From: a virus
Taxonomy: Duplodnaviria; Heunggongvirae; Uroviricota; Caudoviricetes
Direction: 5' to 3' (one strand)
Virus record (IMG/VR): IMGVR_UViG_2548876935_000016
DNA: 11,998 bases
Part shown: positions 935 through 11,998 of the stretch, piece by piece
Position numbering within the stretch: position 1 is the first letter of the stretch
How the letters are laid out: every line of letters begins with the position of its first letter
Made by a program: the position numbers and the translations under genes
The notes under the pieces: generated by a model
Seen by the model: the letters and a program-made list of their open reading frames with translations, nothing else
Told to the model about the DNA's origin: nothing
Databases searched by the model: none

Positions 935-2620
935 GTGAATATAAACGTCGCCGAATTGTTAAATGGGAATTACATTCTGTTATTATTTGTGGTCCTCGCG
1001 CTTGGGCTATGTCTCGGAAAGTTACGACTTGGTTCGATCCAACTGGGTAATTCCATTGGCGTTTTGGTCGTATCACTGTTATTAGGCCAACAACATTTCA
1101 GCATTAACACCGACGCGCTTAATCTTGGCTTTATGCTGTTTATTTTCTGCGTCGGGGTCGAAGCCGGACCGAACTTTTTTTCCATTTTTTTTCGCGATGG
1201 GAAAAATTACCTAATGTTAGCACTGGTGATGGTTGGCAGTGCGCTGGTGATCGCCTTAGGGTTAGGTAAGCTGTTTGGCTGGGATATTGGCCTGACGGCC
1301 GGTATGTTAGCAGGCTCTATGACGTCGACACCGGTTCTGGTCGGTGCTGGCGATACACTGCGTCATTCCGGCATGGAAAGCAGGCAGCTCTCACTGGCAC
1401 TGGATAATCTGAGCCTCGGGTATGCCTTAACCTATTTAATCGGTCTGGTGAGTTTGATTGTTGGTGCGCGTTACTTGCCGAAATTGCAGCATCAGGACTT
1501 ACAGACCAGCGCCCAGCAAATCGCCCGCGAACGTGGCCTGGACACTGATGCCAACCGTAAGGTTTATTTACCGGTGATCCGCGCCTATCGCGTCGGCCCG
1601 GAGCTGGTGGCCTGGACCGACGGCAAAAATCTGCGTGAACTGGGTATTTATCGACAAACCGGCTGCTACATTGAACGTATTCGACGTAACGGGATTCTGG
1701 CAAATCCAGACGGTGATGCCGTGCTACAAATGGGCGATGAAATAGCGTTGGTAGGCTATCCCGACGCCCATGCCCGACTCGATCCCAGCTTCCGTAACGG
1801 TAAAGAAGTTTTCGATCGTGACCTTCTCGACATGCGTATCGTCACTGAAGAAGTGGTCGTTAAAAACCATAACGCTGTAGGTAAACGTCTCGCACAACTG
1901 AAGTTGACCGATCACGGTTGCTTCCTTAACCGCGTCATTCGTAGCCAGATTGAGATGCCGATAGATGACAACGTCGTGCTTAACAAAGGTGACGTTTTAC
2001 AAGTCAGCGGTGATGCCCGTCGCGTAAAAACCATCGCCGATCGCATCGGCTTTATCTCGATTCACAGCCAGGTCACTGACCTGCTGGCATTTTGCGCCTT
2101 CTTTGTTATTGGGCTGATGATCGGGATGATCACCTTCCAGTTCAGCACATTCAGTTTCGGCATGGGGAACGCTGCCGGGTTGTTATTCGCCGGAATTATG
2201 CTGGGCTTTATGCGTGCTAACCACCCGACCTTCGGTTACATTCCGCAAGGTGCATTAAGCATGGTGAAAGAGTTCGGCTTGATGGTGTTTATGGCAGGCG
2301 TTGGTCTGAGCGCCGGTAGCGGTATTAATAACGGCCTGGGCGCGATTGGCGGTCAGATGTTGATTGCCGGATTAATTGTCAGTCTTGTGCCCGTGGTTAT
2401 CTGTTTCTTGTTCGGTGCTTATGTATTGCGAATGAACCGCGCACTGTTGTTCGGCGCAATGATGGGCGCACGCACCTGCGCGCCGGCAATGGAGATCATC
2501 AGTGATACAGCTCGCAGTAACATCCCTGCGCTGGGCTATGCGGGCACCTACGCAATCGCCAACGTCCTGCTGACGCTGGCAGGGACAATCATCGTCATGG
2601 TATGGCCAGGATTAGGATAA
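935..2620 (+). CDS. ybjL: Putative transporter YbjL (AAE / aspartate:alanine exchanger family, two membrane domains with central cytoplasmic domain)
   Basis: 561-aa ORF with hydrophobic N- and C-terminal halves around a soluble central region. Starts at GTG 935 ([16 protein letters not shown]...). Matches E. coli YbjL in length and sequence from memory, and in synteny. Confidence 0.93.
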
Positions 2621-2732
2621 AACTGAAGTTGCCCTGAAAATGAAATTTTTTTGCACAACCGCAGAACTTTTCCGCAGGGCATCAGTCTTAATTAGTGCCA
2701 CTGCTTTTCTTTGATGTCCCCATTTTGTGGAG

Positions 2733-2775
2733 CCCATCAACCCCGCCATTTCGGTTCAAGGTTGATGGGTTTTTT
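2733..2775 (+). terminator. Rho-independent terminator-like hairpin downstream of ybjL
   Basis: Perfect 10-bp inverted repeat cccatcaacc (2733-2742) / ggttgatggg (2760-2769) with a 17-nt loop, immediately followed by tttttt (2770-2775). Confidence 0.6.
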
Positions 2776-2855
2776 GTTGTCTGAAATTTATGCCTTTTAA
2801 AATCATGATGTTAGAAGCACTGCTTTTTAACGATGGCGACAAAATGGCGGCAGCG

Positions 2856-3074
2856 TCAAAGAGAGAGCGCCACCTGTCCTGATTTCATTGGATGCGGCTG
2901 AACCGGATTTGACTCTTTTGGCGTTGCAATCGAACGAACAAAAGTTTCATGGGTAACAAAAGTATGGCTGCAGTTAATGTTCTGGCACTGGTTGTAACGC
3001 TCTTTGGTCAATGAAGATACCTGAAAACTGCTGCGAGTATGGGCGGCACTTCCACACAGTGGGCAAATCATCAT
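2856..3074 (-). CDS. ogr: Ogr-family zinc-finger late-gene transcriptional activator
   Basis: 72-aa product MMICPLCGSAAHTRSS...KERYNQCQNINCSHTF with the CxxC...CxxxxC zinc-finger arrangement characteristic of P2 Ogr / P4 Delta. The track ORF starts at 3107, but a GGGGAGA Shine-Dalgarno sits 8 nt upstream of the ATG at 3074, which gives the 72-aa length I recall for P2 Ogr. Position immediately after D at the prophage end matches P2 gene order. Confidence 0.85.
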   Translation of the reverse strand: MMICPLCGSAAHTRSSFQVSSLTKERYNQCQNINCSHTFVTHETFVRSIATPKESNPVQPHPMKSGQVALSL

Positions 3075-3164
3075 TTTTCGAGTTCTCCCCATTTTTGCTA
3101 AATTCACAATAATGATACCGCATTATTCCATTTTGCAAACTTAAAAGTTCTCCATTGCGAAGAA

Positions 3165-4265
3165 TCATTCCATTTCGAAATCATCAATCCTCACTTCAAG
3201 CTCCAGACTGGTTGTAAAACCGTTATCCGGGCTGACGGTATGTGTCAGAGTCGTAATGGTCCATTCCGCATCATCTATCGGCTGTTTAAAACCACTGACC
3301 TTCACAGGCATTTCCGTGTAGAGATCTGCCCGCCCTTCCGCCAGTTGTAGCGAGAATGACGCAACGCCACGTTGCAGGCGTTCCCACTGCATTTTCGCTG
3401 CCCGTTCAGCGTTGCTCCGGTTGGCATAAGTGCGATTAAGTACCAGCACGTTTTCATCCGTCCCCACCAGGTAATCGCCCTGCTTCGCTTCCGGCTCTTT
3501 CTTCTGCTTCTTAGTCCTGCGCTTACGCTTCACCGTAGTGCTTTCTTTCTTCGCGGGTTCGCGGGTATGCAACCAGCTGGCAATTACCCCCGTGTAAGCT
3601 CCGCGATCTGCCAGGGTAAAGCGGTGACTGTCGCCGTCCTTACGTGTGATAGTAATCACCGGCAGTGGTTTACCGCTGGCGCTTTTGCCCTGTCCCTGCC
3701 GGATGAATAACAGATTGCCATTTTTCACCGATGCAATGGCACCGTACTGGCGCGCCAGCCGCATCAAAAAACTGCCGTCACTCTCATTAGTCTGGTCTAT
3801 ATGCTCCACGGGCTTATCCGACAGGTCTTTACCCAGTGCCATCTTCAGCTTGTGCCGCGCGGCTATTTCCTTCACCACTTCCCCGATGGTGGTGTTATGC
3901 CACGATTTTTCACGGCGGGTATTCAGCGTTTCCCGAAAATCAGCACTTCGCGCCCGGATAGTCAGGCGGTCCGGTGCGCCAGTGTGTTCAATCTCGTCTA
4001 CCGTGAATGCCCCTTTCGGGAAAAGCGGCTGCCCCTTCCAGCCCAGCGCCAGCGTAATGACCGCACCACGGCGCGGCAGCACGATTTTTCCGTCGGCGTC
4101 GTCCAGCTCCAGATCAAGCTGGTCCGCTTCAAAGCCCCGATTGTCCGTCAGCGTCAGACTCATCAGGCGGTTATCCAGCACAGTGGTGATATCCTTCCCC
4201 TCAATACTGATGCTGAATGCGGGAGTTTTGTTTCCTTTGTTAAGCAGTTCAGAGCTGAAATTCAC
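3165..4265 (-). CDS. D: Tail protein D (late control gene D family)
   Basis: 366-aa ORF with gpD-like motifs (LTLTDNRGFEADQLDLELDD...). Apparent GTG start at 4265 overlaps the U stop (GTGA), suggesting translational coupling. Position between U and ogr matches P2. Confidence 0.9.
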   Translation of the reverse strand: MNFSSELLNKGNKTPAFSISIEGKDITTVLDNRLMSLTLTDNRGFEADQLDLELDDADGKIVLPRRGAVITLALGWKGQPLFPKGAFTVDEIEHTGAPDRLTIRARSADFRETLNTRREKSWHNTTIGEVVKEIAARHKLKMALGKDLSDKPVEHIDQTNESDGSFLMRLARQYGAIASVKNGNLLFIRQGQGKSASGKPLPVITITRKDGDSHRFTLADRGAYTGVIASWLHTREPAKKESTTVKRKRRTKKQKKEPEAKQGDYLVGTDENVLVLNRTYANRSNAERAAKMQWERLQRGVASFSLQLAEGRADLYTEMPVKVSGFKQPIDDAEWTITTLTHTVSPDNGFTTSLELEVRIDDFEME

Positions 4266-8913: not shown

Positions 8914-10086
8914 TTACGCGCTGACCTGGCTGGCGAAATTCACCAGGTACTGATCGGTGATGCGCTGACGCAGCATCAGGTTTTCAAGTGGCGGCACTGG
9001 CGTGTAGTCGTAGTCGATGGTGAGTTTTCCGGCTTTCAGCGTGTCTTTGTCGTTCACCGACTCATCCAGCCAGCAATCACCACCAATGAGATAGCCCTGA
9101 CTGACCAGGCTGCGCATTTTGGCGCGGATACCTTCGATAATGTCGCGGGCCAGCGACGGGTTAAGCGTTTTATCCACCGCCCACATGTGTGCTTCTGCCA
9201 TCGTGTCCATCAGCACCTGCGCCGTGCGGGTGTAGTTTTCGAAGGCAAAGAGCGGGTCATCACTCAGGCAGCGGGAACCCCAGAAGCGGAAACCGTCTTT
9301 ACGCACAAGCGTGGTGACGTCGTTCTGGTTCAGCAGACCTGCATCGGTTGCCGGGTCCTGCAGATCCCAGAACACATCTGCAGAAATTCCGGTGACACCG
9401 TTCACGCCCACGTTGGACAGGCTTTTGTGCCATCCGGTCTGCTCGTCAATTTTGGCGCGCAGACCAAGCGCACGGGCGGTGGCATATGCCGTTGCTTCGG
9501 CATTCAGCACCGTGTCCCAGCCAGTAAAGTCAGGCCAGATCAGCATCCCTTCGCGCTGGCTGAAGTTTTCGCGGTAAGTGATCGCCTCCTGCACTGTCTT
9601 GCAGCCATACGCTGACAGGTAAGCAAATCCACGCAGGCTTTGCGCCACGCTCAGCAACTCAGTAGCTACCGCCTTGGTGTCGTGGCCTGGCACGCCGAGA
9701 ATGCGCGGTTTAACGCCGAGCTGTGACTGGGCAGATAACAGGGCTTTCATACCTGTTTTTTTACCTTCAGCAGTCACTGCGCCGATGATATTGGTCGTGG
9801 TTTCGTCTTCCGTTTCACCCTGCGGCACACGCACAACAATGGTCACGGGTTTTGCCTGGTCAGCGATGGCATCCAGCGAACGGGCCAGAGTACCGGACTC
9901 ACCCGCTTTACCGCTGGCAGTCAGCACATCAGTGATCAGCACGGGTTTATTAAGAGGAAACATTTTTGCATCGGCATCATCGCCCGTGCAGACCATACCC
10001 ACGATGGCGGTGCTCACCGTGGTAATAGATCGGGTGCCTTCGTTGACTTCAACAACGCGCACCCCGTGGTGGTAATCCTGAGCCAT
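8914..10086 (-). CDS. FI: Contractile tail sheath protein
   Basis: 390-aa ORF, first gene of the FI-FII-E-T-U-D operon, with AGGAGG 9 nt upstream of the ATG. Sequence family and size match P2 FI. Confidence 0.92.
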
Positions 10087-10162
10087 AGTGGCGAACCTCC
10101 TGATTGGATTAGGCTTCGCCCTATGTTGAAGTGATTGTGCCTGACAAACAGCTAAGCGCAGT

Positions 10163-10180
10163 TGTGTCGTTATTCACACA
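10163..10180 (-). promoter_or_regulatory. Candidate Ogr-dependent late promoter element (TGT-N12-ACA dyad) for the FI operon
   Basis: TGTGTCGTTATTCACACA fits the TGT-N12-ACA dyad I recall for P2/P4 late promoters, and the outer TTGTGT / ACACAA arms are perfect inverted repeats. The dyad centre is about 85 bp upstream of the FI ATG, consistent with a -55 activator site plus a short leader. No strong -35 is visible, as expected for an activator-dependent promoter. Confidence 0.5.
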
Positions 10181-10228
10181 AAATAACGGTATTTGTCTGC
10201 TTGCAGGGATAATCAACATAATGCTGAT

Positions 10229-10795
10229 TCAGGGGGATTCATTGATCTTATTTGCCGGAAATTTTCTATAAATGGTAGAAACGCCTACATCAAAAATCAG
10301 TGCAATACGCTGTCTTGATTCTCCGGCCTCGAGTAAACGCCCAATCTGTGCCCACTGTTCGGTGGTCAACTTAGGACGGCGTCCACCTACTCTGCCTTTG
10401 GTACGAGCTGCAGCCAGCCCTGCCCTGGTACGTTCAACTATCAGTTCGCGTTCCATTTCAGCCAGGGCACCCATGACATGAAAAAAGAAACGGCCCATTG
10501 GGGTACTGGTATCAATACTGTCAGTCAGGCTTCTGAAATTCACACCACGCTGGCGCAACTCTTCTATCAGCGTAACAAGATGCCGCATACTGCGCCCCAA
10601 CCTGTCCAGCTTCCAGACAACCAGCGTGTCTCCTGCCGATAGTATCCTGAGCAGTTTTTTCAGCCCCGGTCTGTCGGACTTAGTGCCACTGATTTTATCC
10701 TCAAAAATCCGCTCACATCCCGCGCAGTTCAGCGCATTGCGTTGCAAATCGGTGTTCTGGTCATTTGTTGACACGCGTACATAGCCAATAAGCAT
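10229..10795 (-). CDS. Serine site-specific DNA invertase (Gin/Cin/Pin/Hin family)
   Basis: 188-aa product MLIGYVRVSTNDQNTDLQRNAL... with the catalytic-serine N-terminal motif and a C-terminal helix-turn-helix, closely resembling Mu Gin as I recall it. The track start at 10801 gives MTM...; the ATG at 10795 has AAGGAGA at good spacing and matches the family N-terminus. Confidence 0.9.
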   Translation of the reverse strand: MLIGYVRVSTNDQNTDLQRNALNCAGCERIFEDKISGTKSDRPGLKKLLRILSAGDTLVVWKLDRLGRSMRHLVTLIEELRQRGVNFRSLTDSIDTSTPMGRFFFHVMGALAEMERELIVERTRAGLAAARTKGRVGGRRPKLTTEQWAQIGRLLEAGESRQRIALIFDVGVSTIYRKFPANKINESP

Positions 10796-10822
10796 GGTCA
10801 TCTCCTTGAATAAAAATCGGGG

Positions 10823-11317
10823 ATGATGCCAGTTAGTCGTAATCGCTGCATTTTCTTAAACGTTGGTTTGGGAGAAGGTGCTCCAGCTATTGGCGTTCCG
10901 TTCTTCTGGCCGTCCGCCGCAATGCCAAATACTGTAATCGACAGTTGGTCCAGTATGGTGTTTTTGAAGTTCAACGGCGCGAAATTCTCTGCCACTGATT
11001 ACCCTGTGCTGGCGAAAGTGTTTCCGGCGCTAGCATTACCTGACGCACGCGGTGAATTCCCACGCATCTGGGATGACGGGCGCGGTGTGGATGCTGGACG
11101 CACGTTATTAAGCTTTCAAAGTGACGACTTTAAGGCCCACGGTCATAACTTCGAATCCTGGCCCGACAGCGGCAATCCGGCATCAAAAGGGGGGGCTGTA
11201 GATGCTCGCGGCGGTAATGGAAATAGATACATCACATCGGGTGTGGTCAAGGAAACGGGAGGCACCGAAACCCGACCAAGAAACATAGCATTCAACTTTT
11301 TAGTAAGGGCGAAATAA
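10823..11317 (+). CDS. Tail fibre variable C-terminal cassette (Mu S / P1 S / Stf-like variable part), currently detached from its constant N-terminal part
   Basis: Open frame ending ...GGTETRPRNIAFNFLVRAK, with the LPDARGEFPRIWDDGRGVDAGR motif typical of invertible tail-fibre C-termini. There is no upstream tail-fibre body on this strand, the frame crosses the crossover site, and its stop overlaps the downstream tfa start (TAATG). The ATG at 10823 is probably not a real start. Confidence 0.75.
   Translation: MMPVSRNRCIFLNVGLGEGAPAIGVPFFWPSAAMPNTVIDSWSSMVFLKFNGAKFSATDYPVLAKVFPALALPDARGEFPRIWDDGRGVDAGRTLLSFQSDDFKAHGHNFESWPDSGNPASKGGAVDARGGNGNRYITSGVVKETGGTETRPRNIAFNFLVRAK
10851..10876. other. 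gix/cix/hix-like 26-bp inversion crossover site (left boundary of invertible tail-fibre segment)
   Basis: TTTTCTTAAACG-TT-GGTTTGGGAGAA: two imperfect inverted 12-bp half-sites around a 2-bp core, matching the TTnTCnnAAACC half-site pattern of Gin/Cin/Hin recombination sites. It lies about 55 bp from the invertase start and inside the tail-fibre reading frame, as gix lies inside Mu S. Confidence 0.6.
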
Positions 11318-11910
11318 TGACACCTGTTTTTGATGAAAATGGACTGGCTACAGTGCCTGGTGATATGCGTTGTTTTTATTATAATGCAGTAACGTATGAA
11401 TATATGGGCTGGTCTGATGAATATATTAATACTGGTGTAAGTATGCCCGCCTGCTCCACTGGTATTGACCCTGGCGAATACATTCCGGGAAGAGTGGCAG
11501 TATTTACGGGTAAGGGATGGAGCCATGAAGAAGACCATCGCAATGAGACCGTTTACTCAACTGAAAATGGCGCAGCTGTTACAGTGGATTATATCGGTGC
11601 CATCAAAGACGGTTATGTCACGCTTTCACCGTTAACGCCATACGATAAATGGGATGGTGAGAAATGGGTGACGGATACCGAGGCACAGCATAGCGCCGCA
11701 GTAGAAGCGGCAGAAGCACAGCGCCAGTCGCTGATTGATGCTGCAATGGCTTCCATCAGTCTGATTCAACTGAAATTACAGGCTGGGCGGAAGCTGACGC
11801 AGCCAGAAAACACCCGACTTAACGCTGTGCTGGATTACATTGACGCGGTGACGGCAACAGATACCAGCACAGCGCCGGACGTCATCTGGCCTGAACTGCC
11901 GGAGGCGTAG
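11317..11910 (+). CDS. Tail fibre assembly protein (Tfa / Mu U / P2 G family)
   Basis: 197-aa ORF translationally coupled to the fibre cassette. C-terminus ...TAPDVIWPELPEA resembles the conserved Tfa C-terminal motif. Confidence 0.88.
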   Translation: MTPVFDENGLATVPGDMRCFYYNAVTYEYMGWSDEYINTGVSMPACSTGIDPGEYIPGRVAVFTGKGWSHEEDHRNETVYSTENGAAVTVDYIGAIKDGYVTLSPLTPYDKWDGEKWVTDTEAQHSAAVEAAEAQRQSLIDAAMASISLIQLKLQAGRKLTQPENTRLNAVLDYIDAVTATDTSTAPDVIWPELPEA

Positions 11911-11998
11911 GCCATTCAATATCTGGCGCACCGGAAGTATCGACCAGTTCCAGTGCGTCCAGATAATCCAGCCACAAATTATATTGCGCCAGTTCCTC
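11882..11998 (-). CDS. Alternative tail fibre assembly protein (Tfa'), 3' end only; 5' part beyond window
   Basis: Hand translation of the minus strand gives ...EELAQYNLWLDYLDALELVDTSGAPDIEWPTPPAVQAR followed by TGA (11884-11882). It shares the ...APD(I/V)xWP..P C-terminal motif with the plus-strand Tfa, and the two genes converge with 3' ends overlapping by about 29 nt. Confidence 0.75.
   Translation of the reverse strand, partial: EELAQYNLWLDYLDALELVDTSGAPDIEWPTPPAVQAR

Follow-up and report, generated by a model that had tools for sequence, protein, structure and literature searches.

Host and prophage genes at the locus

The window, by which we mean the whole stretch of 11,998 nucleotides analysed here, carries on its plus strand the host core gene ybjL (935-2620), which encodes an aspartate:alanine antiporter and is recognised over its full length by NF003440 with 1178 bits. 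It lies upstream of the attachment site and is annotated in every matching E. coli genome when positions 2400-3200 are compared by megablast with 5426 complete E. coli genomes, of which 5419 matched. At the empty locus of K-12 (our locus L001) ybjL occupies 36-1721, RybB 1801-1879 and rcdA (also named ybjK) 1896-2432, leaving 174 nt between ybjL and the convergent rcdA, with the small RNA (sRNA) gene rybB lying in between and nothing interrupting the interval.

Directly after the ybjL stop codon, positions 2622-2686 fold at -22.9 kcal/mol (z -3.1) and contain a gccctg/cagggc inverted repeat on the plus strand, identical in K-12, whose arms (2631-2636 and 2675-2680) lie in host DNA outside the attachment site. 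The repeat was already recorded in the initial annotation of this DNA, with a span of 2631-2690 that has to be shortened, as the second arm ends at 2680. The fold, which may be a 3' structure of ybjL, overlaps the presumed sigma-E promoter of rybB and is followed by no T-run, and the 3' arm of the repeat sits in the spacer of that promoter.

From 2856 onwards the genes read leftward and comprise ogr, D, U, the tape-measure gene T, E, the tail tube and sheath genes and a serine invertase, so that the prophage in the window follows the late-gene order of P2. Its last gene, ogr (2856-3074, minus strand; PF04606 with 78 bits, NF007241), encodes the late-gene activator. The mechanically called reading frame runs to 3107 and has 83 aa from a GTG codon; the NCBIfam match begins at residue 12, and the ogr/Delta protein is annotated at 72 aa (219 nt) in relatives, which gives the coordinates used here. 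Gene D (3165-4265, minus strand), for a late control D or VgrG-like tail protein, is then followed by U, T, E, FII and FI as in P2. At the far end, the serine invertase gene (10229-10801, minus strand), which has Mpi/XisF-type matches, adjoins tail-fibre and tail-fibre-assembly reading frames at 10823-11910. By analogy with relatives that carry opposed tail-fibre assembly genes, 10229-11998 is probably an invertible host-range segment; an inverted-repeat search of 10000-11998 gave no convincing pair of invertase crossover sites, and the partner site probably lies past the end of the window.

Compared over its whole length with the complete E. coli genomes of RefSeq, the window never exceeds 96.3% identity, while the junction region alone reaches 99.6%, which indicates that either the tail-gene block is a mosaic variant or the source genome lies outside the RefSeq complete set. 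Among the related lysogens, strain SA31-1 carries a full 35-kb prophage with the same two junctions. Strain ACN002 (NZ_CP007491.1, our locus L003, 32600-45950) has a 13-kb deletion derivative at rybB, in which pseudogenes of the portal and tape-measure proteins abut in a fusion and which retains int, CI, replication genes and, at the cargo position, a pair of TIR-domain genes.

The passage from host to prophage DNA was located through the megablast comparison. The entire 2400-3200 query is covered in 1115 of the 5426 genomes (20.5%), where ybjL, ogr and D are annotated, and the rybB site is empty in about 80% of complete E. coli genomes. Among the matches listed, which were evenly sampled, the other genomes, K-12 MG1655 included, match query positions 1-392 only, ending at window position 2791; the sole exception among them is strain Z226-7, whose match starts only at query position 357 (window 2756) and lies at a different locus. 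Since the K-12 match ends at 2791 and the prophage match elsewhere starts at 2756, the junction falls inside the 2621-2855 interval to which it had initially been assigned, at 2765-2791. Aligned base by base, window and K-12 are identical through 2778, differ by three mismatches within 2779-2791 and are unrelated beyond, and no K-12-like sequence runs on to ogr. K-12-like DNA thus extends to 2791 and prophage DNA begins at about 2765, giving a 27-nt overlap. The 36-nt overlap of the K-12 and Z226-7 matches (2756-2791) was also considered as the core and was set aside: its additional nine nucleotides on the left (TCAAGGTTa) are host sequence, belonging to the rybB-like secondary attB of Z226-7 and not to phage DNA.

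The att core and the rybB gene

A four-way alignment resolves this overlap into an exact core, ATGGGTTTTTTGTT (2765-2778), followed by an imperfect one, RTCTRAAAYTTAT (2779-2791). The exact core is shared by attB of K-12, attP of phage KP12, the ogr-side junction of the window and the int-side junction of ACN002. Around it, attB reads ggttcaaggttg on the left, then ATCTAAAACTTAT as the imperfect 13 nt and ctactaccc on the right, and attP reads ccgtttacataa, then GTCTGAAATTTAT and gccgttta. The ogr-side junction of the window has the host left flank ggttcaaggttg joined to the phage GTCTGAAATTTAT and gcctttta, and the int-side junction of ACN002 has the phage left flank ccgtttacataa joined to ATCTAAAATTTAT and the host ctactaccc. 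The core variants are therefore of the phage type (G..G) at the ogr-side junction and of the host type (A..A) at the int-side one, which places the exchange to the left of 2779, within 2765-2778.

The int end of the prophage lies beyond the window, and the evidence for both ends comes from related genomes that are 95-99.6% identical at the junction. In ACN002 and SA31-1 the element extends from ybjL and ogr to int and rcdA, with rcdA, core and int adjoining at the far end, and the 27-nt direct repeat bounds the prophage, its copies lying 13.3 kb apart in ACN002 and about 35 kb apart in SA31-1. The same repeat stands at both ends of phage 4LV2017. These two lysogens and the K-12 locus agree with the earlier placement of the site between ybjL and a convergent rcdA, and the search for a direct repeat shared by both junctions, proposed at that stage, has yielded the core described here. 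The ogr-proximal end is likewise the int-distal one, as had been argued from P2, in which the order is ogr, attP, int; the relatives have int at the other end.

Within the Klebsiella phage KP12 record OM835953, int, core and ogr are contiguous, which is the attP arrangement; the int-side match extends to 30259 and the ogr-side match begins at 30233, so that they overlap by exactly 27 nt. This is a 'partial sequence' record of odd taxonomy, and its contiguity could stem from assembly of a circularised or tandem prophage, the arrangement being that of attP either way. Although the entry (our locus L004, 'Klebsiella phage KP12 clone KP12_3') is assigned to Vequintavirinae, this piece is P2-like with the order int-attP-ogr. 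Another phage record, ON470620.1 ('Escherichia phage vB_EcoM-813R9', our locus L006), contains the host genes rcdA, ybjJ and ybjI, and is thus a prophage cut out with host flank.

The core coincides with the end of an sRNA gene. At 2700-2778 the plus strand matches the RybB family RF00110 with 105.3 bits against a gathering score of 40 (E 2e-22), over model positions 1-79 of 79. The 5' end of RybB we take, following its published sequence, to be G2697, which gives a gene of 2697-2778, and the RNA probably spans from G2697 to the U-run at 2770-2775. A presumed sigma-E promoter, GAACTT (2664-2669), a 16-nt spacer and TCTTA (2686-2690), all on the plus strand, was read from the sequence upstream; rybB is established as a sigma-E-dependent gene, and the motif fits the sigma-E consensus. 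The segment 2697-2778 folds at -25.2 kcal/mol (z -3.3), and both the fold and the Rfam consensus structure show a terminator at 2733-2775 on the plus strand, in which CCCATCAACC (2733-2742) pairs with GGTTGATGGG (2760-2769) ahead of six T residues (2770-2775). A consensus terminator scan of 2500-3200 returned nothing, which is uninformative because the 17-nt loop of this hairpin exceeds the 3-8 nt limit of the tool. The hairpin had been described from the outset as the terminator of ybjL; its existence stands, whereas its owner is RybB.

The 27-nt core thus consists of the last 14 nt of rybB and 13 nt downstream, overlapping the 2700-2778 match, and the 14-nt exact core begins with the final five bases of the terminator stem and continues through the U-run into GTT. 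The Rfam score of RybB does not differ between K-12 and the lysogen SA31-1, so integration rebuilds the gene. In Klebsiella, as the record of phage 4LV2017 shows, a stretch of about 65 nt left of the core is nearly unchanged, which fits a conserved sRNA rather than a 3' untranslated region and explains why integrases at least 99% identical occur in phages of E. coli and Klebsiella. In K-12, the stop codon of rcdA lies 3 nt past the core (L001 1893-1898).

No tRNA or tmRNA gene was found by ARAGORN in the window or in two related lysogen loci that span both prophage junctions (L003, from ACN002, and L009), in keeping with the initial statement that no tRNA lies at or by the site. What that statement implied, an unusual site in plain intergenic DNA, has to be abandoned, as the core is the 3' end of rybB and is duplicated at the int-side junction. 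The observation that had been named as telling against it, a tRNA or tmRNA 3' end duplicated at the other junction, is absent in its literal form and present in its sRNA equivalent. The att target is the 3' end of a structured sRNA gene, not a tRNA, and with rybB as the target the apparent oddity of a non-tRNA site is removed.

Attachment-site arms, integrase and known systems

Phage DNA between the core and ogr forms an A/T-rich attP arm (2792-2833), which recurs with the same or almost the same sequence in records of phages and in a prophage located elsewhere. It contains a motif, AATCATGATGTTA (2801-2813), that may be an IHF site; matched by eye to WATCAANNNNTTR, it has one mismatch. Abutting the ogr stop codon are candidate arm-type Int sites on the plus strand (2834-2855), GGCGACA (2835-2841) and GGCGGCA (2846-2852), 11 bp apart. 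They belong to a 22-nt direct repeat, TGGCGACAAARTGGCGGCAGCG, one copy of which is at 2834-2855 next to ogr and the second inside the 3' end of int, each copy consisting of GGCGRCA twice, 11 bp apart. The pattern GGCGRCA-N4-GGCGRCA occurs twice per prophage locus, once in each arm, in every locus examined, and by analogy with P2 these pairs are inferred to be putative arm-binding sites of Int. On the int side, the stretch that separates the core from the repeat pair contains AACTTATTGTTTT in tandem, which is a candidate excisionase site.

The integrase has the domains PF24624 (Int_N) and PF00589 (Phage_integrase) and is 35% identical to P2 Int (E 9e-74) and 49% identical to HP1 Int. Downstream of int, at the int-side junction, the phage CCCGTTTAcatAAATGGG and six T residues form a hairpin in the predicted fold; the 101-nt region around it is overall only as stable as shuffled sequences (z -0.1 to -0.5), and its role as the int terminator is only a suggestion.

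In the P2 record (NC_001895) ogr occupies 24036-24254, attP 24356-24382 and int 24462-25475. The P2 site reads ogr, terminator, Int arm site, IHF site, 27-bp core, Cox sites and a further Int arm site overlapping the 3' end of int, and each of the two arm sites comprises two repeats 11 bp apart (GTGTCCACACAGTGTCCACAG; GTCCACACATTGACCACATC). The system described here shares with P2 the order ogr-attP-int, the length of 27 nt for the core, the repeat pair 11 bp apart after ogr with another at the 3' end of int, and an IHF or IHF-like site between the core and the ogr-side arm. It differs in its arm repeats (GGCGRCA, against the GTCCACA type in P2), in an integrase only 35% identical, in having no separate terminator between ogr and the arm site, and in the early region of its relatives, which is 186-like (CI, CII, Fil, DinI). 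The comparison with known P2-family cores that had been suggested earlier gives a divided answer: the annotated attL and attR of 4LV2017 (19-20 nt) coincide with the rybB core, whereas the P2 core, AAATCTCCCTTACACGGGCTTATTTTTT in the int-to-ogr direction, is unrelated to ATGGGTTTTTTGTTRTCTRAAAYTTAT here. By analogy, the att system acts like P2 site-specific recombination with another core and arm specificity, and it is not that of P2 itself.

The relation to integration into tRNA and tmRNA genes (the scheme of Williams 2002) is similarly close, in that the core takes in the 3' end of an RNA gene that is structured, conserved and present in single copy, and a replacement 3' end brought by the phage leaves that gene intact. 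Here, by contrast, the target is the terminator of an Hfq-type regulatory sRNA. As in those systems, conservation of the target allows its use across genera, in this case Escherichia coli and Klebsiella.

For P2/186-like prophages of E. coli and Klebsiella, among them the Ec86-carrying prophage of E. coli B, rybB is an already published integration hotspot. Together with the account of Archer et al., the insertion site of the Ec67/Ec86 prophage can be taken to be rybB at 19 min. The P2-like prophages Rybb*W, Rybb*B and Rybb*Cr of E. coli W, B and Crooks have the 'rybB ncRNA' as their insertion site, Rybb*B being the one that carries retron Ec86 (Archer 2011, PMC3032704), and rybB has been published as a P2-like integration site elsewhere (Hudson 2014, PMC4048246). 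In defence-island hotspot #29, found in 109 genomes, only Felsduovirus prophages occur, integrated in rybB (Hochhauser 2023, PMC10121019). As quoted in PMC6868368, the host prophage of retrons Ec67 and Ec86 is 186-related and has a common chromosomal insertion site (Dodd and Egan 1996; Lim 1991). Other sRNA genes appear in the literature too: ryeE/cyaR and ryeB are discussed as phage targets (Bobay 2013, PMC3603311), and cyaR/ryeE is also reported as a target of the P2 type (PMC3032704 Table 2; PMC3603311). No dedicated biochemical study of the rybB Int/att system was found in the literature searched.

The known rybB prophages (Rybb*B, Rybb*W, Rybb*Cr, Kpn38RybB, the Elveevirus 4LV2017 and the Felsduovirus of hotspot #29) have in common with the window the host site of ybjL and rybB on one side and rcdA on the other. 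With the type found in the window they share the core, the ogr-side arm and an integrase that is 97-99% identical at the DNA or protein level. The window copy differs only in cargo and mosaic detail and has an invertase and tail-fibre module; the position of retron or defence cargo lies outside the window.

Integration into rybB, strand exchange and implications

Positions 2765-2791 are almost certainly the ogr-proximal junction of a P2/186-like phage (Peduoviridae) integrated in the 3' end of rybB between ybjL and rcdA; in the nomenclature of P2 and 4LV2017 this junction is attR. In the mechanism that we propose, a tyrosine integrase of the P2/HP1 family would recombine the 27-nt attB copy in attP with the 3' end of rybB, a sigma-E sRNA gene, the exchange taking place at or beside ATGG. 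Host DNA to about 2768 and phage DNA thereafter would together restore every base of the gene, leaving the predicted sRNA sequence unchanged. The displaced host copy of the core would end up beside int and rcdA, and the phage CCCGTTTAcatAAATGGG with its six T residues may form a substitute hairpin downstream of int. Given the position of the rcdA stop codon, integration swaps all DNA downstream of that gene, and in a lysogen rcdA transcripts would, to judge from the sequence, head toward the 3' end of int instead of running antisense to rybB.

The point of exchange can be narrowed with the help of Z226-7 (NZ_CP159639.1, our locus L007), in which the same phage type, with an Int 348/350 identical, lies inside a gene for an FAD-dependent oxidoreductase while the rybB site of the strain is empty. 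Of the 3124 genomes with this oxidoreductase gene, 3123 have it without interruption, Z226-7 being the lone secondary-site lysogen, and the reconstructed empty site was recovered at 195/195 identity. The two junctions (L007 6520-6600 and 41760-41800) read ...cctcaaggttAATGG|gttttttgtt and ...gtttacataAATGG|tgaaagtg, with AATGG as the only sequence common to both. This secondary attB mimics rybB TCAAGGTTGATGG; to the left of the junction it copies rybB TCAAGGTT-ATGG, and to the right nothing. Intersecting AATGG with the primary core gives ATGG (2765-2768), in the descending arm of the RybB terminator, and from this one natural event and the core variants exchange most likely took place at or next to these four bases. 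The same comparison suggests that the host-side core site of Int is that descending arm.

An exchange elsewhere in the 14-nt identity, for instance in the T-run and GTT of 2770-2778, with the Z226-7 event being illegitimate or otherwise atypical, is in our view unlikely, if far from negligible. The data from the primary site alone confine the exchange only to 2765-2778, the secondary-site lysogen is a single one among 3124 genomes, and the cuts of a tyrosine recombinase lie 6-8 bp apart, so that one of them must fall beyond ATGG. Against these points, the secondary attB reproduces TCAAGGTT-ATGG on the left only, which fits an Int half-site with exchange at its edge. A more radical reading, in which the block of ogr, D and tail genes is not a phage end and is instead resident or rearranged DNA (a remnant like ogrK-D' of K-12, or a recombinant between prophages), could draw on deleted derivatives at rybB such as the 13-kb remnant of ACN002, and on the mosaic nature of the prophage in the window. 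It is nonetheless very improbable, given full-length 35-kb prophages with the same two junctions, an empty site in about 80% of genomes and a junction whose position matches the attP core of phage records exactly. Integration into plain intergenic DNA after ybjL, with the hairpin as the ybjL terminator and no RNA gene as target, is hardly credible in the face of the full-length RF00110 match, the sigma-E-type promoter motif at the right distance upstream, the near-identity of the sequence left of the core in Klebsiella and the naming of rybB as the target in the literature, even though tRNA and tmRNA genes are absent and the hairpin, 113 nt past the ybjL stop codon and on the same strand, may also stop read-through from ybjL.

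With integration at the 3' end of rybB as the preferred reading, a further conjecture can be put forward, which as a whole we consider improbable. Int may read the descending arm of the RybB terminator, TCAAGGTTRATGG, as its host core site, in which case any gene containing this 13-mer would be a possible secondary site; integration would also replace the DNA just 3' of the RybB U-tract and uncouple the convergent rcdA from the rybB hairpin, and together these effects could alter RybB 3'-end formation, Hfq loading or rcdA expression in lysogens. If this were true, lysogen-specific changes in RybB or rcdA would be present in about 20% of E. coli strains.

To what was known of this hotspot we add the base-level anatomy of the 14+13-nt core, the probable exchange point at ATGG, the P2-like layout of the arms and one natural secondary site. 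This level of detail could help to annotate prophage boundaries, and the defence-island hotspot #29, precisely. The integration of P2/186-like phages into rybB is another case of a phage targeting and rebuilding the conserved 3' end of a structured RNA gene.
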